Shown here: positions 40 to 64,000 of the stretch, one piece after another | Position numbering within the stretch: the first letter of the stretch is position 1 | Layout of the letters: every line of letters starts with the position of its first letter | Source of the DNA: Escherichia phage vB_EcoM_Goslar | Length of the DNA: 64,000 nucleotides | Direction: 5' to 3' (one strand) | Sequence record: NC_048170.1 | The notes under the pieces: generated by a model | What the model was told of the DNA's origin: nothing | Database searches by the model: none | The model's input: only the letters and a program-made list of their open reading frames with translations | Made by a program: the position numbers and the translations under genes

Positions 40-56
40 AAAAAAAAAAAAAAAAA
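40..56. repeat. A17 homopolymer tract
   Basis: 17 consecutive A residues, 10 nt after the UUAUG that follows the partial hairpin. Confidence 0.9.
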
Positions 57-4144: not shown

Positions 4145-4148
4145 AAAC

Positions 4149-4180
4149 CATCCTCCCAACCCGTAAGGGAAGGGAGGATG
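4149..4180 (-). terminator. conserved intergenic stem-loop terminator
   Basis: catcctccc-aa-ccc-gtaa-ggg-aa-gggaggatg between convergent genes; minus-sense followed by UGGUUUUUAUGC. Confidence 0.55.
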
Positions 4181-4197
4181 AAATATGCCGTTAAACG

Positions 4198-7498: not shown

Positions 7499-10018
7499 TT
7501 AAATAATCGTGACGTGTTCGTTATATGTTTCAGGGAGAATGATGTTCGTTTTATCAAGAACCATACACTCTGCTTTACGGAACGACGCATGGTTGATAAC
7601 ATAGTGGCTGATGAACCACACCTGACTTACACGGTGACCATCAACCAAACGACGAACAAAATCCATGGCATTAGATTGGTGTTGTGGATCAAATGTTGAT
7701 GCGAATTCATCTAACATCAACGGATAATCCGTAAACCCTTTGTAATGCATCATCGCGATGATAAACGCGATATTGATAATTTCCTTTTGCCCCTTACTCC
7801 CATAAACAATATCTTTTCGCGGTGTCGGATACTTCTCAGTTAAAAGCGGAAAACGATAGTTCAATCCTTGCGCATCGATAGCACATGGGAGTATCTGAAG
7901 TTGGTATTCCCAAATACTCGCAATGATACCATTCATGTATTCGACGAACGCGTTGATTGGACCCGCGATTGTTTCGGCAATCAGTCCGTTAGATGGACTT
8001 AACTCATCCAGAACCAGTTGTGCGTAACTGAGCTGTTCTTCCACCTCTTTTTGTGTCGTTTCCAACTGAGCCAAAAGCTGCTGGTCGGTTTTAGCTTCCT
8101 GTAGTTGTTGTTCGACATGACTTATTCGGCGAACCGTATCAGACATCGCAGCACGTAACGATTTCGTGTAGAGGTGTTGCAGATACTCTAGCCACAGTTG
8201 CGTTAACGCTTTATCGCTGTTATCAGAACGCACCTGATCTTCCATAATCGTCGTAATGGTTTCCAGCCTACCTTCCGTAGCTGTGATGGCTTGTGTTAAC
8301 CGTTCAACGGTAGTCAGCAACTCTGTCCTGTTCTTATAAAGCAATTCTCGACGTTGCTGTAACGGTTCAACATCAACCGCTTGTACACGTTCGAGCATGC
8401 CTTGAAGATGTTTACGTTCCTGTTCGGCTTGTGTGTAACGCGCAAGTTTCTCAAACGCAAGCAACCAATCGTTAATGATGCCAATGCTGCGGAATCCTAA
8501 ACCGTTTTTACGGCCTTCTTCCAGCAGATTGTCCCACATGGGTTTAATGGCGTAATAATCTTTCGTCCAACGTGTTAACTGACGATGCTGTTCCATCCAG
8601 AGCGTATAACGCTGCACCTTCTCATTAAGTTCGGCTAACGATTTCTCTTGTTCTTCAACCCAAGCACGACCCTTCTGAATACGTTGTTCAATACTCGCTT
8701 TGCTGGTCTTTTCTGTTTCACCAACATGAAAGCGATAATTGCATTTTGGACAGCTGGTCTGGGGTTGATGATTCAGGTGGTCAAGATGCGCTTCCAAATC
8801 GGCTAACGCATGTTTCGCGTTACGCAAACGCATTCTTGCCGCCTCTTCCTCCTTGATGTAAGCTTCAGCATCGTAAACATGATAGGTGTTGTCGGTATCA
8901 ATCCATTCTTGGAGTAATTCTGTTAACGGAGCCTGAACTTGCGTGAGCTGCTGTAAACAAACCGCGGCGTCCAGATTCATTGTTAAAAGCTCACCTGGAT
9001 GATCTTGCTGAAGTTGTTCGTCCAAACGTGCGAGACGGGCTTTAATCTGATCGATATCGCCTTCTCCAGACTGTTTCAACTGGTCAAGGATATTATCGAT
9101 ACCCAACAGCTCGTCAACCTGACTTTCGAGTTTCGCATTCGCATTCGCGAGTTGCTCTCTTAGTTCAGCCAGATTCCGCTGTTCTTGTTGCGATGTTCCT
9201 CCTTGGTAACGAACAACCGCATGAAGAAGCTCGCGATTAAAATGATGAGCACGTTGTGCGGATTCCAGAAGCTGTCGTTGATCAACATCACTATCGAATA
9301 ACGGCAATCCCATCATCGCTTCGAGCGCTGAGCGTTGCTGCTTTAACTCTGCTTCCAATCCCTGGTGGTCGGTTCCGGTGTATTTCGCTTCAATGCGCTG
9401 TGATGTTTCAACCAACTTATTCAGTGTATGCTCATTCACCGCTTTCAGTGAACGTACTTGTTGCTTAACAACCTGAAACAACTCAAGCGCATAATCGACG
9501 TTAACCGGACATATCTGCGTTAATCGTTCGCGACGTTTCATTGGCCCCATTTCAGTGAACTGGTAAGCTGTTTCGTAACCTAACAACAAACGAATGGTAT
9601 CGTCATTAAGTTCGAAATGTTCTTCGATCAGTTTCCACTGGGCCGGTTGTGTGCCACCACCATTCAGGTTCTCGCTATCGTTAACGTAGAACTCATGCTT
9701 AAACCCTTTTTCTAAACGACTGATAAGACGGTATTGCTTATTACGGTGTTCGCAGCGGTACTCGTAATACCCGTCTTTATCAAAATCGGCACGCTCAGGA
9801 ACGGTCGGATACAGCAAAGGCAATAGACTACTCTTACCCGAACCATTACTACCTAAAATGAGTTGTACGGGATTATCTGGCCGGATGACCAGCTCCCGAA
9901 TCATCCCGGTATCAAAACGATTGAATCCACGTAAGTGGAGATAGGTGCATCGCATGCTATGATAATCCTTCTTCGATACCTTCTGAACCCGTGGTTCAGA
10001 ATGCGAAGCTGAAGCCAT
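7499..10018 (-). CDS. SbcC/Rad50-like recombination ATPase
   Basis: Walker A LILGSNGSGKSSLL, long heptad-rich central region, CPKC zinc-hook-like motif in the middle, C-terminal LMLDEFAST Walker B/D-loop. Confidence 0.6.
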   Translation of the reverse strand: MASASHSEPRVQKVSKKDYHSMRCTYLHLRGFNRFDTGMIRELVIRPDNPVQLILGSNGSGKSSLLPLLYPTVPERADFDKDGYYEYRCEHRNKQYRLISRLEKGFKHEFYVNDSENLNGGGTQPAQWKLIEEHFELNDDTIRLLLGYETAYQFTEMGPMKRRERLTQICPVNVDYALELFQVVKQQVRSLKAVNEHTLNKLVETSQRIEAKYTGTDHQGLEAELKQQRSALEAMMGLPLFDSDVDQRQLLESAQRAHHFNRELLHAVVRYQGGTSQQEQRNLAELREQLANANAKLESQVDELLGIDNILDQLKQSGEGDIDQIKARLARLDEQLQQDHPGELLTMNLDAAVCLQQLTQVQAPLTELLQEWIDTDNTYHVYDAEAYIKEEEAARMRLRNAKHALADLEAHLDHLNHQPQTSCPKCNYRFHVGETEKTSKASIEQRIQKGRAWVEEQEKSLAELNEKVQRYTLWMEQHRQLTRWTKDYYAIKPMWDNLLEEGRKNGLGFRSIGIINDWLLAFEKLARYTQAEQERKHLQGMLERVQAVDVEPLQQRRELLYKNRTELLTTVERLTQAITATEGRLETITTIMEDQVRSDNSDKALTQLWLEYLQHLYTKSLRAAMSDTVRRISHVEQQLQEAKTDQQLLAQLETTQKEVEEQLSYAQLVLDELSPSNGLIAETIAGPINAFVEYMNGIIASIWEYQLQILPCAIDAQGLNYRFPLLTEKYPTPRKDIVYGSKGQKEIINIAFIIAMMHYKGFTDYPLMLDEFASTFDPQHQSNAMDFVRRLVDGHRVSQVWFISHYVINHASFRKAECMVLDKTNIILPETYNEHVTII

Positions 10019-11158: not shown

Positions 11159-11185
11159 ACAGAAGAAAAAAGAAATGCTATACAA

Positions 11186-11220
11186 CCTCCTTCCCTAGCC
11201 GTCAAGGCCGGGGAAGGAGG
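11186..11220. terminator. conserved intergenic stem-loop (variant loop), between convergent genes
   Basis: cctccttccc-tagccgtcaaggccg-gggaaggagg; 10-bp outer stem, U-rich flanks on both strands. Confidence 0.5.
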
Positions 11221-11235
11221 ATTATAGTTTATTTA

Positions 11236-14971: not shown

Positions 14972-15052
14972 TTAAAAAGTTCCTCTGTTTCACGTTAATT
15001 AAACAACGTATTGATTTCTATTTGACAGAATACGAACAGTGTACGTATCTAT

Positions 15053-15076
15053 CATGAAGGTAATGTAGTCGTGAAA
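15053..15076 (-). promoter_or_regulatory. conserved promoter-like motif, copy A
   Basis: Minus-sense TTCACGACTACATTACCTTCATGA; one of four near-identical copies, about 80 nt upstream of the 14971 start. Confidence 0.45.
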
Positions 15077-15638
15077 GGATTTGTGTTACAGAAAGGGTTT
15101 TGTTTGTTTTAAGAAGGGATGGATTTAGAAGAGGTGTTTCAAGGAAGGTAAACGAGGATAGGTATTTTGATTTAAGTAAGCAAGTAAGATGTTATCTGTA
15201 TTTGTTAAAAGTGTATTGTCTATGTTATCTTGTTTATCTTAGGTTATGTCTTATTGTTCAATCGTTTTATCTTGGTATGTTTACGTTGTTTTTATTTATC
15301 TTAAATTAATTTAAAAGTAGATCAATAAGCTTATCTTCAAAACAATGGATAACATGTGTTTACTACCTTAACGGTAACACATGTCATCTGTGCATTACAC
15401 TACGTTACATGCTAGTTAAATCGGATAACTCAAAAAACCATTTGTGATACTCTTCTTCACGTTGTTCATCAGAGTATCTCGTCTATACTCATTGCATTCG
15501 TATACGACATAACCGTTATACGCTAACGCTACGCTTATAGCTTGATAACTCTAAGGATAAAAACATAAACTCGCTTCGCTCGTTTAGTTTTTCTTTTTCT
15601 TAGAGTTATCCTGTTGCTCGTCTCTAAAGGACTTCGCT

Positions 15639-15666
15639 CCTCCCCCGTCCCCCGAAGGGGCCGAGG
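15639..15666 (-). terminator. degenerate member of the stem-loop family (CCCC-CGAA-GGGG core)
   Basis: cctcccccgtcccccgaaggggccgagg inside the non-coding island. Confidence 0.3.
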
Positions 15667-15777
15667 TCGTGGAAATTTTACTTTCCAAATACATTTACAA
15701 CATCTGTAAACTTTTACTCCAGGTACTTAATCTTATCGTTAGAAATTATAAAAGAGAAGAATAAACACAAACATAAA

Positions 15778-15810
15778 CCTTCCTCCAACCCAACAGGGAA
15801 GGAGGAAGGG
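15778..15810 (-). terminator. conserved intergenic stem-loop terminator
   Basis: ccttcctcc-aa-ccc-aaca-ggg-aa-ggaggaagg directly after the stop of 15826..16719; minus-sense hairpin followed by UUUAUGUUUG. Confidence 0.6.
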
Positions 15811-15825
15811 AGAGCTTGATTTTAA

Positions 15826-27735: not shown

Positions 27736-27745
27736 CCAAACATAA

Positions 27746-27777
27746 CCCTCCTCCAACCCGTAAGGGAAGGAGGAGGG
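27746..27777 (-). terminator. conserved intergenic stem-loop terminator
   Basis: ccctcctcc-aa-ccc-gtaa-ggg-aa-ggaggaggg; minus-sense hairpin followed by UUAUGUUUGG; sits between convergent genes. Confidence 0.6.
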
Positions 27778-27786
27778 AATATGCTG

Positions 27787-33904: not shown

Positions 33905-36814
33905 ATGAACGATATAAATAAAGGGCGCGTCGCCCTCGAACGTCAAATGAGCAATAATGACGTTGCGAAGGCACTCATGAACAAATTTGTCGCTCCTGCT
34001 CCGCAGTCACGTCTTTATAACACACGTGATGCGGAAGGAGCGAACGGTCGTTTCGGGTTAGTTGTTCCCGACCAAATGACGATGAACACGGTTACGCGTG
34101 CGACCGCGACAAACATCGAGGATAATAAAAACATCCTCGAGTTGTTCCCTGAACTTAAACGCGTGATGCAGATCTATGTTGCCGCGTTGACGAACCCTAA
34201 CGATCTTAAGACGGTCGAGATGTTTATCGACAGCGAAGATTTCCCCGGCAGAGTCGCAGAAATCGTTCAGCCGATGATCGATACCATCGACACGCATTTT
34301 AAGAATATCTATAAAATAAAGACGCTTATCCCTCGTATCATCGAAGACGTCTTCTTTATCAAGGGCAGTTATAACTTCGTTGTTCTGCCAGAAAGCACGC
34401 TCGACCGCGCCATTAATGGTAACGGTCAACTGAAACTTGAAGAATACGGTTTTAAAGACAACCATTTTGCAAGCTGGGGACTTTTAGGTAACGACAGTCG
34501 CAAACGCCACGAAAATCAATTACCTGCGACGGTTTCGATGGAAGATTATTTCTCAGGCGTTAATGAAACCATACCGTACGATCCTGTTGTTCGCATAGAC
34601 AGCATTAAATTTACCAATACCCTGCTTCGTGATAAGGACGGTAAATTCATTGAAGCGAAGATCGATATTCCGGATATGGTTACGGTTGTCGATAACCCGG
34701 ATATCCTCCGCATGCCTATTCTGCATCAACGTCGAGCAGCGACAGCAGTGCAGCGTGCGTTACGTGCAAACACGTTAGGAGGTAGTGGTTTGGTAACGCT
34801 GTCAGGTGATCCGACCCTAACCGCTAACCGACGTGAGCTGACGCAAGAGCAGGTTAACGAGATCTGGAATAAACTCAACATCCAGCGTCACACCAAGGTA
34901 TCTCCCGTTTACGCGTTGGCAACCCCAGATACACTCGATCGTCAAAGCGTCGGTCATCCTGGTGTGATGCACGTACCACCTGAGGCATTAGAACCTGTAC
35001 ATGCGCCGGGTGATCCGGAGAACCATATCGGATATTTGGTTCAGTTGGATGAGTTTGGTTATCCGGTGCGTTTGGTTGAAGATGCTGCGTATTACAAGCA
35101 GTTGGAAGGTCGGTTGTCGAAGATCACTGCAGATATCGCGGGCACGTCAAGCAACGGCATGGCGAGCGAGATGATTGGTGCAGCCAAGAACATGATCCAA
35201 GGTACGTCATGTAATCAGGTAGACATGTCGGCCTTCGTATCGTCGTACGAATCGCTGATGCAACGTTACATTGTCGAACGTATCGTTAACGGTTATCTTG
35301 GCAGTGCGGTGGAGATCGGTGCGACATCATCGTTTTATCTGTCGATGCTTGCCCGTAGCCTCGCTCACAAGCAGACCCGTGTTTTGTTTATTCCTCGAGA
35401 GATGGTGACTTACATCGCCTATGAATACAACAAATACGGTATCGGTCGTTCGCTGCTTGAAAGTACGAAGATGATCTCGTCGCAACGAGCCATGCTCATG
35501 GTTCAAGAACTGATGGCAAAAATCAAAAGTTCGTTGAACTATACGACGCTAAGCGTAATGCTTGAAGACACCGACAGAAACCCGGTCGATACCGTCGAAC
35601 AAGCACTGCATAGTTTCGCTCGTGTCTACCAGTCTGGTTTCCCGTTGGGTGAAACTAACCCGATGGATATCATCAACGCGTATGAACGAAGCTCGATTCG
35701 ATTGAAGGTTGAGGGGAATAACCCACGCTTCCCGAAATTGAATACAGACGTCAGTGTTGAGCAGCGTAACTATCAGTCTCCTGATAATGAGCTGATGGAT
35801 CGTTACCGTCGTGACCATTTCATGGGCTTGGGTGTGTCTCCGGAGATTATCGATACTTCCTACCAATCTGAATTCGCAGCTTCTGTGATTACAGCTAACG
35901 CGATGCAAGAGAAACAGTTCACGGTTTGTCGTGAGGTGATCACGAATGGATTATCGGACCACATCAAGAAATATACGGCATACAGTCCCGTGTTGTTGAC
36001 GTCGTTACGAAACACGGTTCGTGCGAACATGTCTAAGCTTTCCCAGGCACAATTGAAGCAGCTTTTTGGTAGCGATTTCGAAAACGGTGTTATCCGTAAC
36101 GTTAACGCCTATCAGGAGATTGACGACCAATCAGCAACAATGGATCTGGATTACACTAAACCAGAAGTCCAGGAAGTTATTGCCGATGCTTATGTGTCCA
36201 TGTTCTTAAACAGCCTGCGTGTGCGTTTACCGGATAGCAATGCTCGTCGCCTTGAAGATCAGGTACGTGAATATAATCAGTACAAGGAAGCGATTACTGC
36301 GCAACTTGATGATTATTTAACGCCTGATTACGTCATGGGTCTGGGTGGGGTTGATGAAACAACGCTGCAGATGATCCGCGCATGCATTATTGGTACCGCG
36401 ATGCGTACGTGGGCAAAAGAGAACAACTTCAATCAGGAGCTGGCTGATCTCTTCAGTCTTGACGATAAGAAGAATGCCGTGCAAGATTGGAAACGTATGT
36501 CCATGGAACATATTGAAGTCATGGGTAAATGCATGGGTGATTTTGCATTGTATATTCAGAATCTGACGAAGAAGATTGAAGAGAAGATGGGAGCTCAAGC
36601 ACAGGACGGTAGCGTTTCATCTGATGGTTCGTGGTCATCCGATTCAAGTAGCGATACCGGTTCTTCTGATGACTTCGGTGGCGGTGACGATTTCGGAGAT
36701 ACCGATTTCGATACCGAAACGATGGAGGAAACCTCAACAGAAGAAACAACCACATCTGAGGAAACGACTACCGACACAACGTCAGAAGACGACACTTCAG
36801 GTGGCGTTGTCTAA
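33905..36814 (+). CDS. large hypothetical virion-type protein with acidic S/T/D/E-rich C-terminal tail (portal is one guess)
   Basis: 969-aa ORF, ATG with AAGGAG SD; C-terminal ~70 aa low-complexity acidic (SSDSSSDTGSSDDFGGGDDFGDTDFDTE...). Confidence 0.45.
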   Translation: MNDINKGRVALERQMSNNDVAKALMNKFVAPAPQSRLYNTRDAEGANGRFGLVVPDQMTMNTVTRATATNIEDNKNILELFPELKRVMQIYVAALTNPNDLKTVEMFIDSEDFPGRVAEIVQPMIDTIDTHFKNIYKIKTLIPRIIEDVFFIKGSYNFVVLPESTLDRAINGNGQLKLEEYGFKDNHFASWGLLGNDSRKRHENQLPATVSMEDYFSGVNETIPYDPVVRIDSIKFTNTLLRDKDGKFIEAKIDIPDMVTVVDNPDILRMPILHQRRAATAVQRALRANTLGGSGLVTLSGDPTLTANRRELTQEQVNEIWNKLNIQRHTKVSPVYALATPDTLDRQSVGHPGVMHVPPEALEPVHAPGDPENHIGYLVQLDEFGYPVRLVEDAAYYKQLEGRLSKITADIAGTSSNGMASEMIGAAKNMIQGTSCNQVDMSAFVSSYESLMQRYIVERIVNGYLGSAVEIGATSSFYLSMLARSLAHKQTRVLFIPREMVTYIAYEYNKYGIGRSLLESTKMISSQRAMLMVQELMAKIKSSLNYTTLSVMLEDTDRNPVDTVEQALHSFARVYQSGFPLGETNPMDIINAYERSSIRLKVEGNNPRFPKLNTDVSVEQRNYQSPDNELMDRYRRDHFMGLGVSPEIIDTSYQSEFAASVITANAMQEKQFTVCREVITNGLSDHIKKYTAYSPVLLTSLRNTVRANMSKLSQAQLKQLFGSDFENGVIRNVNAYQEIDDQSATMDLDYTKPEVQEVIADAYVSMFLNSLRVRLPDSNARRLEDQVREYNQYKEAITAQLDDYLTPDYVMGLGGVDETTLQMIRACIIGTAMRTWAKENNFNQELADLFSLDDKKNAVQDWKRMSMEHIEVMGKCMGDFALYIQNLTKKIEEKMGAQAQDGSVSSDGSWSSDSSSDTGSSDDFGGGDDFGDTDFDTETMEETSTEETTTSEETTTDTTSEDDTSGGVV

Positions 36815-36845
36815 ACGGATATAAAAAAAAATAACACATAGTTAA

Positions 36846-36880
36846 CCTTCTCCCCAACCCGATGAGGGAAGGGGAGAAGG
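36846..36880 (-). terminator. conserved intergenic stem-loop terminator (variant loop GATGA)
   Basis: ccttctcccc-aa-ccc-gatga-ggg-aa-ggggagaagg between convergent genes; stem changes are compensatory. Confidence 0.55.
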
Positions 36881-36897
36881 GCTATGCGCTATTTAAT

Positions 36898-43339: not shown

Positions 43340-43438
43340 CTGACTTATGTATCACGGTGCCGGATGAATGTCCGGTGCAATGAAACCATCTGCAACGTTG
43401 TCATCAAGAATATCATCCAACGAAGCAGCTACGGTAGT

Positions 43439-45661
43439 TCAGTTAGTCTGAACCGGCAGCTTGATGTTTTCAGTGTAGACCTTACGCAGGTTCACAACGT
43501 TAATCAGACCCAGCAGCGGGCAGTTGTTAACGAAGCGGCAGCGCGGCTGAACCATGGTTTCTTTAGAAACCTGACCGTTACGGGTAACCTGAGCAACAGA
43601 TACCAGTTCCGGTACATACAGGAACATACCGAAGGTCAGCGGATCCGGAGAACCCTGGATACCACGAGACAGGGTCACGAAGATCTTATCGCGCAGCATG
43701 ACGTTCGGGTTATCTACAACCACGAAGTTGAAGCTTACACCAACGGTACGGAAATCGCCATCGGTCTGCAGGAACTGCGGGATGTAGTTGTCAGTTGCTA
43801 CTACGCAACGCGGTTTCTCATCAGCGTTGGAAGACAGCAGCTGCAGAGCTGGCTGATAACCAGACTCGGAGTACATGCGGTATGCCATCTCACGAATCAC
43901 GTTCATGATCGCAGCAGACACTTCAGCACGACGTTCTGCAGTGGTGGTACCCTGAACAGATTTCTCCAGGTCCAGATTGATTTCTTCGAACCACGGACGG
44001 ATCAGGTAACGACCGAAACCTTCGATCTGGATGTCACCGAACTGACGGAAGCGAGAGGTCGCAACCGCTTTCAGTGCGTCTTTGTAGCTGAACAGTTTCT
44101 CAACCATCAGGTTGTCGAAACGTGCGTTAGCAGCTTGGATCAGAACGTCCAGGTCAGCAGCGTTTTCTTCCCAATCCAGCGGACGAGGAATGGAGAACGG
44201 AGCCAGCAGGCCGATTGCGTAACGTTCTTGCTTCATGTTGAAGTCAAGGTGCTTACCGCGCTCACGACGGTTGCTGTTGTTACGACGGATACGCAGTTCG
44301 TAACCAACCAGTTTGAAGCTCAGGTCTTCAGCCAGTTGTTTGAACTCTTCGCTCTTACGCGGTTGTTCGATGTTGTCCTGATCAACCAGGCGATACAGTT
44401 CAGCGTTAGCGCCGTTAACACGCAGACCCGCTTTCTCTACGTTGGAAGAACCGTAAACTTCGATCGCCAGCTGAGCAGCGGATTTCGCATCGATGATGTC
44501 CTGCAGCGCTTCGGCTTTCGCACCTTTAACGTCTTTGGTGTTCTCATCAACGAAGATGGAGTGGGTGTCGAACGCCAGGGTCATTTTGCGGAAGTCGCCT
44601 TCCAGGGATTTCTGGAAACCGTTGGTGATCAGACCAGATACGTCGAACGGTACGTAAGAGGTTTTGCTGTGCTTGGTAGATTTGATTTCCACCAGGATTT
44701 TGGTCAGCGTGATCTGAGCATCCAGCGCGTCGGTGTTGTCGCTGTAACCGTTAGCCAGAATGCTGTCGTCTTCAGCGATACCGATCATGTCGATCAGTTT
44801 ATCAACAGCCAGGTAAGACGTTTTATAAGTTACGCCTTTAATTTCGATGTCGCGCGGAGCAACGATAGCTTTGTCAACGAAGTACTGCGCGTTAGCATCG
44901 TCAGCACGATAGATCGGATGCAGATCGGTCACGTCGTTGGACAGAACGTCGTTATACATGAACGCATCCAGCAGCGGACGACGTACCCAATCAGCCGGAG
45001 TACCGTCAGCGTTACGACGCAGGTGGTTGAACACCAGCGGACGACGGAAAGATACGTCGTAACCGATCTGGTTCGGAGCCAGAACGATGGTGTTGTACAG
45101 TTCGTTACCCATGCGGCTCAGACGAGAAGCCTTCACGTTGAACACGACGGAGTACGGCATCATGTCACGCAGTTCTTTCTGGTCGTAGGACAGCTGAACC
45201 AGTTCTTCAGATTCGCAACCGCAGGAATCAGCAGCCATCATGACGAAGTTAGAGCTGTCAACTTCACGACCTGACGGAGTGGTGCTGATGTTCATGGAAC
45301 GTGCTTGTTTAGCATATTCTACCGGGTTGCCATGAGCCAGCATGATCAGTGCTGCTGCACGAGCCTGCTGTGCGTTCATGGTGAACAGCTGTTCTTCAAT
45401 ACGCTGCTTCTCTTCCGGAGTGGTGGTTTCGAAGCCCAGCAAGGTCAGAACCGGTTCTTCGGCTTTACGGATGTCGCTGCTGAAGCTCTTAACATCCATT
45501 TCGTTAACCAGTTTGTCCATGGATTTGAAATCAACCTTAGAAGCAGATTCCATAGACAGGAAGGTGTTCTCCAGACCTTTGTCTGCTGGTTTGCTACCAT
45601 TAGCGGTCAGGAACTGGCGAGTGGCCGCGACCTGTTGGCTAAGAAGGGTTTTATCATTCAT
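43439..45661 (-). CDS. putative major capsid protein (jumbo-phage-like size); tail sheath not excluded
   Basis: 740 aa; strongest optimal-codon bias in the window; SD AAGGA 9 nt upstream; own promoter-like and terminator elements; N-terminal ~160 aa contain S/A/G-x-E motifs (SME, GFE) of the kind cleaved by prohead proteases. Confidence 0.35.
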   Translation of the reverse strand: MNDKTLLSQQVAATRQFLTANGSKPADKGLENTFLSMESASKVDFKSMDKLVNEMDVKSFSSDIRKAEEPVLTLLGFETTTPEEKQRIEEQLFTMNAQQARAAALIMLAHGNPVEYAKQARSMNISTTPSGREVDSSNFVMMAADSCGCESEELVQLSYDQKELRDMMPYSVVFNVKASRLSRMGNELYNTIVLAPNQIGYDVSFRRPLVFNHLRRNADGTPADWVRRPLLDAFMYNDVLSNDVTDLHPIYRADDANAQYFVDKAIVAPRDIEIKGVTYKTSYLAVDKLIDMIGIAEDDSILANGYSDNTDALDAQITLTKILVEIKSTKHSKTSYVPFDVSGLITNGFQKSLEGDFRKMTLAFDTHSIFVDENTKDVKGAKAEALQDIIDAKSAAQLAIEVYGSSNVEKAGLRVNGANAELYRLVDQDNIEQPRKSEEFKQLAEDLSFKLVGYELRIRRNNSNRRERGKHLDFNMKQERYAIGLLAPFSIPRPLDWEENAADLDVLIQAANARFDNLMVEKLFSYKDALKAVATSRFRQFGDIQIEGFGRYLIRPWFEEINLDLEKSVQGTTTAERRAEVSAAIMNVIREMAYRMYSESGYQPALQLLSSNADEKPRCVVATDNYIPQFLQTDGDFRTVGVSFNFVVVDNPNVMLRDKIFVTLSRGIQGSPDPLTFGMFLYVPELVSVAQVTRNGQVSKETMVQPRCRFVNNCPLLGLINVVNLRKVYTENIKLPVQTN

Positions 45662-45810
45662 TGAAAGTATCCTTTACAGAATTAACTTATATAAGTCGGT
45701 CGATAGACCATAGCGTACACGCGTGCATGCGCCACTATAGTATCAGTAAACACTTACCGTTATTGAGGTCGTGATACAACACTAAAAATGCCGCATAACT
45801 TTTCCCTACG

Positions 45811-46431
45811 TCATAAACGACGCAGGCGATAATGGATGGAACGATTGGTGCAATATGAACGGAACAGCGGCAATTGCGCAACTTCCGCAAGACTCATATT
45901 AATTCGCAGGTGTTCAATAACGGCGCTGTAGTTATCAGCAATACGATCGCTCAATAACTCTTCTGCCAATAAAGGAAGACAATCGACAACAATCGCGATC
46001 ACATCCTCATTAACATAACGCACCCGAACACTCAACGGACGTTTGTCTGGGCTGTAAGTTGGATCCGCCAAACGACGTTCAATATCACGCGGATAGCTCG
46101 TCAGTAAATGGTAATAACCATTGTCATAACGATTGATGTACTCGCACAGCACATCAACATTCTTCTCTGGCGGCAAACCTGTTTCGTCATAGTGATACGC
46201 AAACATACCACCAAGCAGGTTGTTAAGATGAACTGCAGGGTTCGCTTGTTCGTGTTCTTTCGTGATGAAGAAAGGCACGTTTTGAGCCGCGAAATAAAAA
46301 CCTACATCATTGGGCGATAGTATGCCGAAAAGACTTTTAGGATCTAATAACACCTGTAAGTCATCACGCGCATTTCGAATGATCGCGTGTTCTACCCAAT
46401 TCGGAACGACGAGATATCGGAGTTCCTTCAT
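45811..46431 (-). CDS. hypothetical protein
   Basis: 206-aa ORF, SD AAGAGG. Confidence 0.45.
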   Translation of the reverse strand: MKELRYLVVPNWVEHAIIRNARDDLQVLLDPKSLFGILSPNDVGFYFAAQNVPFFITKEHEQANPAVHLNNLLGGMFAYHYDETGLPPEKNVDVLCEYINRYDNGYYHLLTSYPRDIERRLADPTYSPDKRPLSVRVRYVNEDVIAIVVDCLPLLAEELLSDRIADNYSAVIEHLRINMSLAEVAQLPLFRSYCTNRSIHYRLRRL

Positions 46432-46470
46432 TATGATTACCTCTTTGCAAGTATCGAAAGGATTGAGTCG

Positions 46471-48081
46471 ATGGACCCAAAACAGATAGCCATTAAGATT
46501 ATTACGTTACTGTTTCGTAATGCACAATTGAACCATCCCGATCCCAGTACGATCGAACATGTTAAATCCGTCTTAGATAAAGTCGAACCCCCGAAAAACC
46601 ATCTCGCTACAGACGTAGATAGAGAGGTTTTCAGCAACCTGATGAACACCATTCATTGGATGCTGGAACAACCGTTATCGGAACCTTTCGATAAACAACA
46701 GTTGTTACAAAGGATACGTTTAGATTGCCTTGAACAAAGCAATCTTTACGAGATTCTTGCCGACGGACTGTACGATATCGAAGACGACGCTCATATCAGT
46801 AAGGTCTGTTCGCTCTATTACAATGAATTACGTAATCTGATTACCCGTCGTCGTGTTTTCGAAACCTTTAAAAACACGTACATGGATATCAGTAACGGGC
46901 GACTTGGGGATAAAGAATTTTTCGATGCGATGGCGAATTTGAAATTATCGCTAGACAGTATCGAAATGGATACCGAAAATCCCGAAGAGATGTCGTGTAT
47001 GATTGACGGCTTTATCGCTGACAGCGAAGACGATATCGAGAAAGTTGAACGTATGTTCGTCAAAGCGATGGAACGTAACAGTCCTGAAGGTGGATTTGTA
47101 ACCGGCTGGCAAGGCTTTAATAAAATGTTGGGGTCGGTCGGTGTTTTACGTCGCGGTACCTTAGGACTGATTGGTGCAATGCAGCACCGAAACAAGTCAG
47201 GTGTGTTGTTAAAACTGTTCACGCATCTGGCACTGTACAATAAACCCCATTTCTTTTTTCCGGAGCGAGCAAAGAAAGCACTACTGATTCACTTGTCAAC
47301 AGAAAACGAAGTAGAAGAAAACACGCTTCAGATATACAAGAACATGCGAGAACAGGAAACAGGCGAATATGTCGATATTCGTAAGATTGACCCTCGCGAG
47401 GCATCACGTTATGTGTTGAAGGTGTTCAACGATGCGGGTTTCTCTGTTTGTATGCGTCGTGTTGATGGGATGAGTTATAAACAACTCGCTAATCTCATCG
47501 ACCATTTCGAACGCATGGGTTATGAAGTCATGGCGTTGTTCATTGACTATCTGAAAATGTTCTCATCGGAAGGGTTGGATAGAAATGGACCGACCGGCGC
47601 ATGGTTACAAGAACTCTTCAACAAAGTACGTAACCTCTGCAGCGTTAAACGTATTTTAGGTATGACCGTACACCAGCTGTCATCCGACGCGAAGATGCGC
47701 GCACGTGACGGTAACGATGAAGAGTTCGTTGACCAAGTCGCGGGTTTAAGTTACTGGGATGGTTGTAAAGGGATTGACCGTGAGATTGACCTCGAAGTGA
47801 TTGTTGATATCGTTAAGGAACCGGGTAAACGTCAAAGCTGGCAAGTCTTTGCGTTAGGGAAAGACCGTCAACCGGATAACGGTTCAACGAAACCTGAAGA
47901 CAAACATTTCGCGATGCCATTCCAAACCATCGGGATGCTTCCTGATGATTACGGTAAGAAAGCAGTATATTGCCGCAAGGTTGGCGGACAACCTGTCTCC
48001 GAGGGAGGTAAAGGTCCGTGGAACAAGTTCGATGAAAACGCAGCACCGAGTAATGAATTACAATTTGATTTAGAATTTTAA
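46471..48081 (+). CDS. DnaB-like helicase-family ATPase (divergent Walker A)
   Basis: Start moved to ATG 46471 (SD AAAGGA); motifs in DnaB order: LIGAMQHRNKSG (H1-like, atypical), FIDYLKMF (H2/Walker B), VHQLSSD (H3-like), VKEPGKRQS (H4-like); only plus-strand gene in this block. Confidence 0.4.
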   Translation: MDPKQIAIKIITLLFRNAQLNHPDPSTIEHVKSVLDKVEPPKNHLATDVDREVFSNLMNTIHWMLEQPLSEPFDKQQLLQRIRLDCLEQSNLYEILADGLYDIEDDAHISKVCSLYYNELRNLITRRRVFETFKNTYMDISNGRLGDKEFFDAMANLKLSLDSIEMDTENPEEMSCMIDGFIADSEDDIEKVERMFVKAMERNSPEGGFVTGWQGFNKMLGSVGVLRRGTLGLIGAMQHRNKSGVLLKLFTHLALYNKPHFFFPERAKKALLIHLSTENEVEENTLQIYKNMREQETGEYVDIRKIDPREASRYVLKVFNDAGFSVCMRRVDGMSYKQLANLIDHFERMGYEVMALFIDYLKMFSSEGLDRNGPTGAWLQELFNKVRNLCSVKRILGMTVHQLSSDAKMRARDGNDEEFVDQVAGLSYWDGCKGIDREIDLEVIVDIVKEPGKRQSWQVFALGKDRQPDNGSTKPEDKHFAMPFQTIGMLPDDYGKKAVYCRKVGGQPVSEGGKGPWNKFDENAAPSNELQFDLEF

Positions 48082-48106
48082 ACGCAAAAAAAAAGATTGT
48101 GCGGTT

Positions 48107-48138
48107 CCCTCCTCCAACCCGTAAGGGAAGGAGGAGGG
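48107..48138 (-). terminator. conserved intergenic stem-loop terminator
   Basis: ccctcctcc-aa-ccc-gtaa-ggg-aa-ggaggaggg; on the minus strand followed within ~10 nt by a U9 tract; between convergent genes. Confidence 0.6.
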
Positions 48139-48154
48139 GTTATGACCGCTTTGA

Positions 48155-48481
48155 TTAACTTATTGTCATGAATTCATTAGGTGAAAATTTCCAGCCGTTC
48201 TCAGTGAGAAGCGTGTTGAGTTTCGCTGCAACGATAAGCCATGCATGCATGGCCGTTACATCGTATTGGCGATTCACTCGACGTTGGTTTTCGATATTGA
48301 TTTGCTCCTGTTCAGTGATGTTTGGATAAAGTGCGATAGCGCTAGGTTTACCCAGCGCGCTAGTCATCACCGCAGTACATTCACTGATAATGTTGTTTAA
48401 GTGGTAGTTATACACCGTTCCACGCATGACGCGATGACGGCATTCGATAATAGCGTCGTAAATGATTTCTCGAGTAATCAT
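48155..48481 (-). CDS. hypothetical protein
   Basis: 108-aa ORF. Confidence 0.45.
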   Translation of the reverse strand: MITREIIYDAIIECRHRVMRGTVYNYHLNNIISECTAVMTSALGKPSAIALYPNITEQEQINIENQRRVNRQYDVTAMHAWLIVAAKLNTLLTENGWKFSPNEFMTIS

Positions 48482-48487
48482 GATAAT

Positions 48488-48889
48488 TTAAAACATACGG
48501 TCGTTTTTAGCACGGGCGTCCATTACCAGATCGTAGATGCCTGCGGTTCGTAAGCACTCTTCGTAGTAACGATGCGCGCCTTCATCAGCCATCCACGATA
48601 ACCCTCGGCTATCCGCAACGATAACCAGTTTGTTATTGTTGAACGCACACACCACACGGTAGGTCGCGTTGTTATTCGGATCGCGAGTGATAAGTTCGTA
48701 AACGCCGTTAACAGGTTTACTGAATTCACCGTTTAACGGGATGAGTTCGGTAGTACCTTCAGCAAACGTTACGTTGATCGGTGATGGGTCTTTAGCGATA
48801 ACAGTATATTCCACATTGTGTTCTTTACTGGTCATGATACCGAAGTAAGAACTCACAGGGGAACGCGGTACACTAAGAATATTAAACAT
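48488..48889 (-). CDS. hypothetical protein
   Basis: 133-aa ORF, SD AAGAGGA. Confidence 0.45.
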   Translation of the reverse strand: MFNILSVPRSPVSSYFGIMTSKEHNVEYTVIAKDPSPINVTFAEGTTELIPLNGEFSKPVNGVYELITRDPNNNATYRVVCAFNNNKLVIVADSRGLSWMADEGAHRYYEECLRTAGIYDLVMDARAKNDRMF

Positions 48890-61008: not shown

Positions 61009-61041
61009 CCTTCCTCCAACCCGTAAGGGAAGGAGGAAGGG
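61009..61041 (-). terminator. conserved intergenic stem-loop terminator
   Basis: ccttcctcc-aa-ccc-gtaa-ggg-aa-ggaggaagg; minus-sense followed by UUUUAUGGCG. Confidence 0.6.
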
Positions 61042-63999: not shown

Positions 64000-64000
64000 A

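Follow-up and report, generated by a model that had tools for sequence, protein, structure and literature searches.

Does the solitary plus-strand gene in a long minus-strand block of Escherichia phage vB_EcoM_Goslar encode a working replicative helicase, although its Walker A motif lacks the Gly that usually precedes the Lys? We addressed this question for the open reading frame (ORF) at 46471..48081 of a 64,000-nucleotide (nt) stretch of sequence record NC_048170.1, hereafter the window, whose own numbering is used throughout. A preliminary description, made from the sequence alone, had read this gene as a DnaB-like ATPase and had offered three options, namely an active divergent helicase, a loader-like inactive paralog, or a different RecA-fold ATPase. 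The first of these fits best: since its catalytic residues are kept in 169-173 of 173 relatives, and since it has a single copy in almost all of the 280 phage genomes with homologs and is both a core gene of its phage group and the only replicative helicase candidate reported there, the gene very probably encodes an active, divergent DnaB-type replicative helicase, as judged from conservation.

Gene model and catalytic residues

ORF 46471..48081 is a genuine gene of 536 amino acids (aa), with the boundaries that the preliminary description had given it. ATG 46471 encodes an MD.K.L N-terminus, which is the beginning of every homolog, and is preceded at 8 nt by a Shine-Dalgarno (SD) sequence whose AGGAT is kept in two relatives that are 74% identical (loci L004 and L007). 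The mechanical ORF (46387..48081) opens at GTG 46387, which we rejected as start because it overlaps the divergent gene and would add an N-terminus found in no homolog. All motif strings picked out earlier (GAMQHRNKSG, FIDYLKMF, HQLSSD, and a basic block that reads GKDR) were found in the translation, and the features of the gene are as follows:

46471..48081, plus strand: coding sequence of the divergent DnaB-like replicative helicase, 536 aa (PF20307, phrog_3213, 280 homolog-bearing phage records, Foldseek)
46457..46462, plus strand: SD AAAGGA of the helicase gene (sequence)
47173..47202, plus strand: Walker A or P-loop GAMQHRNKSG, residues 235-244 (translation; gap-free alignments to the P-loops of DnaB, T7 gp4 and T4 gp41; column statistics)
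47302..47304, plus strand: E278, aligned to the catalytic Glu of DnaB motif H1a, fSLEm (173 of 173; alignments to Aquifex and E. coli DnaB)
47539..47562, plus strand: motif H2 or Walker B FIDYLKMF, residues 357-364, with D359 (aligned to DnaB IDYLQLM)
47671..47688, plus strand: motif H3 HQLSSD, residues 401-406, with H401 and with Q402 at the DnaB gamma-phosphate sensor position (aligned to DnaB SQL)
47857..47868, plus strand: GKDR, residues 463-466, on the DnaB GKQR(NG) K-x-R block, which carries the arginine finger (hhalign to E. coli DnaB; translation)

Conservation was assessed in 173 sequences, comprising representatives of 50%-identity clusters plus three isolates, which are typically 25-45% identical to one another. 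K242, S/T243, E278 and D359 are each present in all 173, followed by Y360 (172), Q402 (170), K464 and R466 (169 each), and H401 (155). Near-invariance of the catalytic positions points to purifying selection on hydrolysis of nucleoside triphosphates (NTPs), which is not expected of a dead paralog. The alignment to DnaB also makes R466 the putative arginine finger.

Family membership

The protein matches PF20307, "Divergent DnaB-like ATPase" (divDNAB), with E 1.4e-120, its residues 151-513 covering profile positions 3-355 of 356; since the score is 402.7 bits against a gathering cut-off of 26, this family match is not due to chance. Furthermore, phrog_3213 ("DnaB-like replicative helicase") is matched over residues 1-516 with E 7.5e-123, and the general DnaB family phrog_19 with E 2.4e-11. 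Homologs are found in 280 phage genomes at 282 places, so that the gene is nearly always single-copy, and they are mostly annotated as DnaB-like replicative helicase; an exhaustive profile search returned 1608 cluster representatives (50% identity clusters), 656 of them with E <1e-30. The closest isolate homologs, from Xanthomonas phage Xoo-sp14, Erwinia Agricanviruses and Ralstonia RP12, are ~34% identical, metagenomic assemblies contain helicase proteins at 98% and 74% identity, and a megablast search of 50,697 phage records gave no nucleotide match of the locus to any phage, which speaks against a close relative among the isolates.

The PhiKZ ortholog is PHIKZ118 (gp118), and the Goslar gene is the positional ortholog of PhiKZ gp118 and of Erwinia phage RAY gp315, a chimallivirus core gene. 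As a PhiKZ-type capsid gene, genes for PhiKZ-like virion proteins and for a head-tail joining protein, and a member of a "polymerase" PHROG lie nearby, the window is a piece of a PhiKZ-like phage, and the source is a nucleus-forming, PhiKZ-like (chimallivirus, "group 1") jumbo phage. The DnaB-like helicase gp315 of RAY localises inside the phage nucleus and belongs to core block 5 together with the capsid gene (PMC10299810), and PhiKZ gp118 is listed among nuclear proteins (10.1101/2024.03.27.586873). Chimalliviruses possess one DnaB-like helicase, their primase and clamp are not identified, and their replisome comprises a split polymerase and a clamp-derived subunit (PMC13648687). A canonical DnaB has not been reported for this phage group, in which the divergent DnaB is the only replicative helicase candidate reported (PMC7824862, PMC13648687).

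Both Pfam, whose entry name already calls the family divergent, and the literature (PMC7824862) cover this family together with its divergence and the alteration of its motif for nucleotide binding. The preliminary description was thus a correct rediscovery of a feature that is ordinary for the phage group, and this copy adds a fairly distant new member to a family already known. Iyer et al. (2021) found the divergent DnaB to be typical of group 1 jumbo phages and, as its ATP-binding motif is modified while the Mg-binding site is intact, judged it probably catalytically active (PMC7824862). They print "Walker B" as the altered motif (PMC7824862), whereas in our alignments Walker A is altered and the Walker B Asp invariant; we read the two as the same observation. 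The Goslar protein shares with PhiKZ gp118, RAY gp315 and Desertfox gp317 the family profile, the length class, the invariant catalytic residues and the Gly-less type of P-loop, as well as the neighbourhood and the opposite orientation beside the major capsid gene. It carries, however, ~20 extra C-terminal residues, common only to its metagenomic relatives (74-98% identity). We regard the annotation call as settled, namely a core replicative helicase of a PhiKZ-like clade at the above distance of ~34% identity from its closest isolate homolog.

Some relatives have unusual gene models. In PhiPA3 (NC_028999.1, 118348..119502), the helicase homolog matches at two separate places, and some metagenomic family members reach 560-640 aa (P0036, P0146 and P0159 were noted), with P0146 and P0159 matching the profile in two stretches. 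The two-part matches and the long members suggest that part of the family is interrupted by intervening sequences, be they introns, inteins or homing-endonuclease insertions. For Xoo-sp14 (MT939492.1; locus L001), the deposited helicase start lies ~83 codons late, at locus position 8250, while the tblastn match and an MDAKLLL start are at 8001; the "hypothetical protein" Xoosp14_119 is annotated on the opposite strand across this true N-terminus (8001..8250).

Relation to bacterial DnaB

A single-sequence search of the PDB (phmmer) returned only noise, and a family profile was needed for a match. This profile found Aquifex DnaB (4nmn, E 4.7e-6), in an alignment that begins in the N-terminal/linker region, and also Geobacillus DnaB (2r6a, 2vye). 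With hhalign, E. coli DnaB was aligned over 255 columns at E 3.7e-6 and a probability of 87%; all motifs are in register, such that E278, D359, Q402 and K464/R466 fall on SLEM, IDYLQLM, SQL and GKQRNG, in that order. Some relatives, if few, carry precomputed matches to PF03796 (DnaB_C).

An AlphaFold2 (AF2) monomer model, built from 23 relatives with a mean predicted local distance difference test (pLDDT) score of 76.7, displays helices within residues 3-202, including a disordered hinge at 169-180 and a helix at 186-202, and then an alpha/beta C-terminal domain. When this model was compared with the PDB by Foldseek, the top 50 matches were all DnaB-family hexameric helicases, namely bacterial DnaB, T4 gp41 and SPP1 G40P (the latter two as 8gao, 8dtp and 3bgw), with E values of 1e-13 to 1e-9, a probability of 1.00 and ~500 alignment columns. 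Such alignments, which match the N-terminal domain indirectly, suggest a full DnaB layout, in which a linker joins a helical N-terminal domain to a C-terminal domain of RecA fold. The DnaB-like ATPase originally proposed is thus borne out by PF20307, phrog_3213, hhalign and Foldseek alike.

Compared with bacterial DnaB from E. coli, Geobacillus stearothermophilus, Aquifex aeolicus and Vibrio cholerae, the Goslar protein shows the same two-domain fold and the same order of motifs: Walker A, the H1a Glu, H2/Walker B with DYL, H3 with QLS, an EQD-type acidic block, and K-x-R. It differs in the Walker A motif, which is AARPSMGKT in bacterial DnaB and GAMQHRNKS, without the Gly before the Lys, in this helicase, and in the His that precedes the sensor Gln (HQLS). 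Furthermore, these phages, unlike bacteria, have no known primase or loader to go with their helicase (PMC13648687), and whereas T7 gp4 is fused to a primase, the Goslar helicase has no primase domain.

The Walker A loop

Three independent profile alignments place IGAMQHRNKSG on VAARPSMGKTT with zero gaps and with the Lys and the Ser/Thr in register. Likewise, the family loop v-i-G-A-L-Q-H-n-f-K-s-G-f was aligned to Aquifex ILAARPGMGKTAF, E. coli IVAARPSMGKTTF, T7 gp4 VTSGSGMGKSTF and T4 gp41 LMAGVNVGKSL; the T7 and T4 P-loops, which align gap-free, keep the canonical G-K-[ST], whereas this helicase lacks that Gly. In place of the canonical Walker A [AG]xxxxGK[ST] it reads AMQHRNKS, where A236 occupies the Walker "first G" position, as an Ala does in bacterial DnaB. 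With K242 and S243 both canonical, the Gly before the Lys, here N241, is the sole canonical residue lost. The replacement of this Gly by Asn had been recognised correctly in the preliminary description, but not the additional claim that the motif is one residue longer, which came from counting from G235 and disagrees with all three gap-free alignments.

Among the 173 sequences, the residue before the Walker Lys is Tyr in 73, Phe in 64, Asn in 18, Trp in seven, and Gly and His in four each, while the loop A-L-Q-H-x-[FYN]-K-[ST]-G is otherwise well kept (A236 in 154, L237 in 153 and H239 in 151). The Goslar P-loop has Met237 and Arg240 where the family consensus is Leu and Asn. According to nearest-neighbour and UPGMA (unweighted pair group method with arithmetic mean) clustering, Asn before the Lys occurs in ~14 separate lineages whose nearest relatives have Phe or Tyr, among them the cultured Erwinia phage Desertfox, where gp317 has the P-loop GALQHNNKTG with Asn before the Lys, as in Goslar. 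Judging by these columns, the missing Gly is a family hallmark, and the Asn of this copy a recurrent minority variant and not decay.

A precedent for a dispensable Gly is offered by MCM2-7 and archaeal MCM, whose Walker A GDPxx[AS]KS has that Gly replaced and which are nevertheless active. MCM proteins, however, are AAA+ and use a small replacement residue (Ala or Ser), in contrast to the RecA fold and the aromatic residue or Asn of this family, and the two are not known to share ancestry.

Probable activity of the helicase

We propose that, like DnaB, T4 gp41 and T7 gp4, the helicase would form a hexameric ring on single-stranded DNA, with NTP sites at the subunit interfaces. K242 and S243 of the P-loop together with D359 would bind NTP-Mg, E278 would activate water, Q402 would sense the gamma-phosphate, and R466 (with K464) of the neighbouring subunit would serve as arginine finger. 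Sequential hydrolysis could then power translocation and fork unwinding in the phage nucleus, alongside the split family-B polymerase. The loss of the Gly before the Walker Lys would represent a remodelling of the P-loop throughout the family, tolerated at a position open to Tyr, Phe, Asn, Trp and His, and rarely to Gly.

Several points weigh against this interpretation. The identity to cellular DnaB is just 12-15%, and the likeness is visible only at the profile or fold level; neither PF03796 nor PF00772 (DnaB N-terminal) matched the helicase at E <= 0.1, nor did any NCBIfam model. Active P-loop NTPases almost without exception have a Gly ahead of the Walker Lys, for whose replacement by bulky residues there is no mechanistic explanation. 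The AF2 model has the helix behind the loop begin at H239, some three residues ahead of the Lys, which hints at a non-standard, remodelled P-loop. Finally, the searchable literature yielded no assay of ATPase or helicase activity for any member of the family.

One rival reading is a catalytically dead or severely impaired DnaB-like ring, whose role would be that of scaffold, loader-like factor or regulatory paralog, NTP hydrolysis having been lost with the P-loop Gly; the Asn in place of the Gly, the Phe or Tyr of the family consensus there, the apparently shortened loop with its helix from H239 and the dearth of biochemical data on the family in the searchable literature would all agree with it. 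A dead ring, however, is difficult to reconcile with the complete retention of K242, S/T243, E278 and D359, and the near-complete retention of Q402, K464 and R466, at an overall identity of ~25-45%. The helicase gene is also the sole DnaB-like gene in nearly all genomes and a core gene (PMC10299810), in phages without a reported canonical DnaB (PMC7824862, PMC13648687). Moreover, none of the loader families DnaC/DnaI AAA+, lambda P, T4 gp59 and DciA was among its Pfam or PHROG matches or its top 50 fold matches. Known helicase loaders belong to other folds. We therefore find no support for the loader-like inactive paralog offered as an option at the outset, and regard a dead ring of any kind as improbable. 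Even more improbable is a RecA-fold ATPase of another kind, such as a RadA/Sms-, KaiC- or RecA-like recombination or repair factor with superficial likeness to DnaB. The low identity to DnaB and the unmatched Pfam DnaB_C would permit it, but the top 50 fold matches are exclusively DnaB-family helicases and extend over ~500 columns, including the N-terminal domain and linker, which deprives this earlier option of support as well. The start of the Aquifex DnaB alignment in the N-terminal/linker region, the DnaB motifs in register and the PF03796 matches of some relatives point in the same direction, and in the relative RAY recombination has a separate UvsX recombinase, gp150 (PMC10299810).

A different question is whether the remodelled P-loop of an active helicase alters nucleotide binding, by a changed NTP preference or by hydrolysis that is gated by a partner, for instance the polymerase complex, so that it would reflect adaptation and not drift. 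The strong conservation of the family-specific loop itself (A236, L237 and H239) and a replisome that is unusual in other respects, with its split polymerase, clamp-derived subunit and no known primase (PMC13648687), would favour such an adaptation. In contrast, residues as chemically unlike as Tyr, Phe, Asn, Trp, His and Gly all occur ahead of the Lys, which argues against a precise role of the side chain there. We consider this adaptation possible but rather doubtful, and prefer an active divergent replicative helicase in which the loss of the Gly is simply tolerated.

C-terminal tail and a possible new mode of nucleotide holding

The C-terminus of the helicase might be relevant to its partners:

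47983..48078, plus strand: flexible tail, residues 505-536, with a Gly-rich linker and then an acidic/aromatic tip PWNKFDE...FDLEF (pLDDT <50 over 505-536)

Among 170 relatives, 160 have a final stretch of 12 residues that is net acidic, and aromatic pairs close to the C-terminus (PFWDF, AWW, DWF) are frequent. In T7 gp4, an acidic C-terminal tail with Phe as its last residue binds the T7 polymerase, and SSB likewise has a C-terminal partner-binding tail; the helicase tail is reminiscent of both. Tentatively, and against our own expectation, the change of Gly to Tyr, Phe or Asn within a conserved loop could mark a new structural solution by which a RecA-fold helicase holds the phosphates, adapted to the chimallivirus replisome, with the C-terminal tail tethering the polymerase complex. 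If true, it would imply an altered NTP preference or partner-gated hydrolysis in a replisome without a recognisable primase or loader. A family of more than 650 clusters (50% identity) breaks the near-universal G-K-[ST] rule while its other catalytic residues are fixed. A structure or kinetics of PhiKZ gp118 would reveal how the P-loop works without the Gly and help to complete the picture of the chimallivirus replisome, although this is a question of the family and not of this window.

Neighbourhood and divergent promoter region

From 36898 to the end of the window at 64000 (~27 kb), the helicase gene is the only plus-strand gene in the ORF map, as its earlier designation as a lone plus-strand gene had implied; the other plus-strand ORFs there are shadows inside longer minus-strand genes. 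One such shadow, lying opposite the capsid gene, is a plus-strand ORF of 636 codons (43364..45274), which we rejected. The features next to the helicase gene are:

43439..45661, minus strand: PhiKZ-type major capsid gene, two genes from the helicase (PF25620 PhiKZ_MCP, E 5e-218; phrog_3231)
45811..46431, minus strand: divergent neighbour, 206 aa, between the helicase and major capsid genes (synteny; counterpart of Desertfox gp318 and PA7 gp254)
46432..46470, no strand assigned: divergent intergenic region, 39 nt, with two back-to-back SDs (sequence)
46439..46444, minus strand: SD AGAGGT of the minus-strand divergent gene (sequence)

The order of the minus-strand capsid gene, a minus-strand gene of ~200 aa and the plus-strand helicase gene recurs in Xoo-sp14, PA7/PhiKZ, Desertfox and metagenomic relatives, and corresponds to core block 5 (PMC10299810). 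Further neighbours are the above genes for virion proteins, head-tail joining and the "polymerase" PHROG. The 206-aa neighbour is a fast-evolving, syntenic small gene: it is without match in Pfam and PHROG, only its N-terminal 60 aa are weakly similar to Desertfox gp318 (E 8e-6), and PA7 gp254, whose annotation reads "virion structural protein", is not significantly similar.

In L004 (5621..8271), as well as in L005 and L006, the helicase gene is followed by three extra plus-strand genes of 126, 362 and 390 aa, none with a Pfam match. These genes are absent from the window and from L007, and the helicase gene is hence not "lone" in the L004 phage. They may represent an accessory insertion at the terminator site.

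The divergent gene starts, estimated earlier to lie ~40 nt apart, are separated by 39 nt, and the corresponding gaps in relatives measure 36 nt (L004), 37 nt (L007) and 28 nt (Desertfox). As the gap is mostly filled by the two SDs, the promoters must overlap coding sequence or lie further upstream; the earlier conclusion of promoter overlap is geometrically sound, but gaps of 28-39 nt in relatives make this arrangement normal for the group and not anomalous. PhiKZ promoters are indeed very compact, with late promoters defined by TATG at the start site and middle promoters by a weak AT-rich patch (PMC7598289). TATG at 46432..46435 was considered as a PhiKZ late-promoter T-ATG core and rejected, since L004 reads TACG and L007 TGGT there. 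A sigma-70 promoter scan gave four sites versus 5.5 expected, and the octamer TATATTAC, which resembles a PhiKZ early promoter, was not enriched (two versus 1.6 expected), with none near the helicase gene. Neither scan was informative, and no promoter was assigned to the two genes.

Terminator and repeated hairpins

At its 3' end, the helicase gene converges with a minus-strand gene (48155..48481) across a gap of 73 nt (48082..48154):

48086..48149, no strand assigned: bidirectional terminator, GC-rich hairpin (CCCTCCTCC..GGAGGAGGG), between the convergent helicase gene and the minus-strand gene (folding)

Folding of this gap yields a hairpin with a free energy (dG) of -32 to -34 kcal/mol and a z-score of -4.2 to -4.9, and none of 200 shuffled sequences was as stable. 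The hairpin is followed by GTTATG on the plus strand, and by ACAATC plus T9 on the minus strand. A hairpin with a U-run lies at the same position in L007, Xoo-sp14 and Desertfox, and both the Goslar site and these three have a spacer of 6-9 nt between stem and U-run (AAUC, ACUC, AUCUC), unlike textbook terminators. A standard terminator scan detected none in 45500..48600; it missed the hairpin at 48101..48149, which folding revealed, because the T-run lies 6 nt from the stem. The conserved terminator of PhiKZ consists of a CCYCCCC...GGGRRGG hairpin with TTAT behind it, and experimental mapping in PhiKZ placed terminators that work in both directions where genes converge (PMC10914365); the helicase 3' hairpin resembles both.

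The helicase gene is a self-contained transcription unit, opposed to the surrounding virion genes and closed by a PhiKZ-type bidirectional terminator, which should block antisense read-through from the neighbouring minus-strand virion genes. The lone-strand position, the short divergent gap of 39 nt and the bidirectional terminator are together a conserved family architecture.

Elsewhere in the window, a GC-rich hairpin with the core CCTCCTTCCCTTACGGGTTGGAGG is repeated, with identical copies at 27750, 48111 and 61013. Its sites are 4145..4197, 11159..11235, 15782..15805, 27736..27786, 36815..36897, 48082..48154 and 61013..61036. Of the six junctions between convergent genes five carry it, as do at least two gaps between co-directional genes. 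With up to three mismatches allowed, its pattern was matched four times, versus no match expected. It resembles the PhiKZ intrinsic terminator motif of a hairpin plus TTAT (PMC10914365), and its copies are missed by a consensus terminator scan. The copy at 15782..15805 lies in a stretch of ~850 nt (14972..15825) that holds no ORF of at least 70 aa in a greedy ORF map. T-runs of at least nine occur just three times in the 64 kb (40..56, 36823..36831 and 48086..48094), all on the minus strand and each after a hairpin with a dG of -27 to -37. Two of the three coincide exactly with the 3' ends of plus-strand genes within minus-strand blocks, namely 33905..36814 and the helicase gene, where they would stop antisense read-through.

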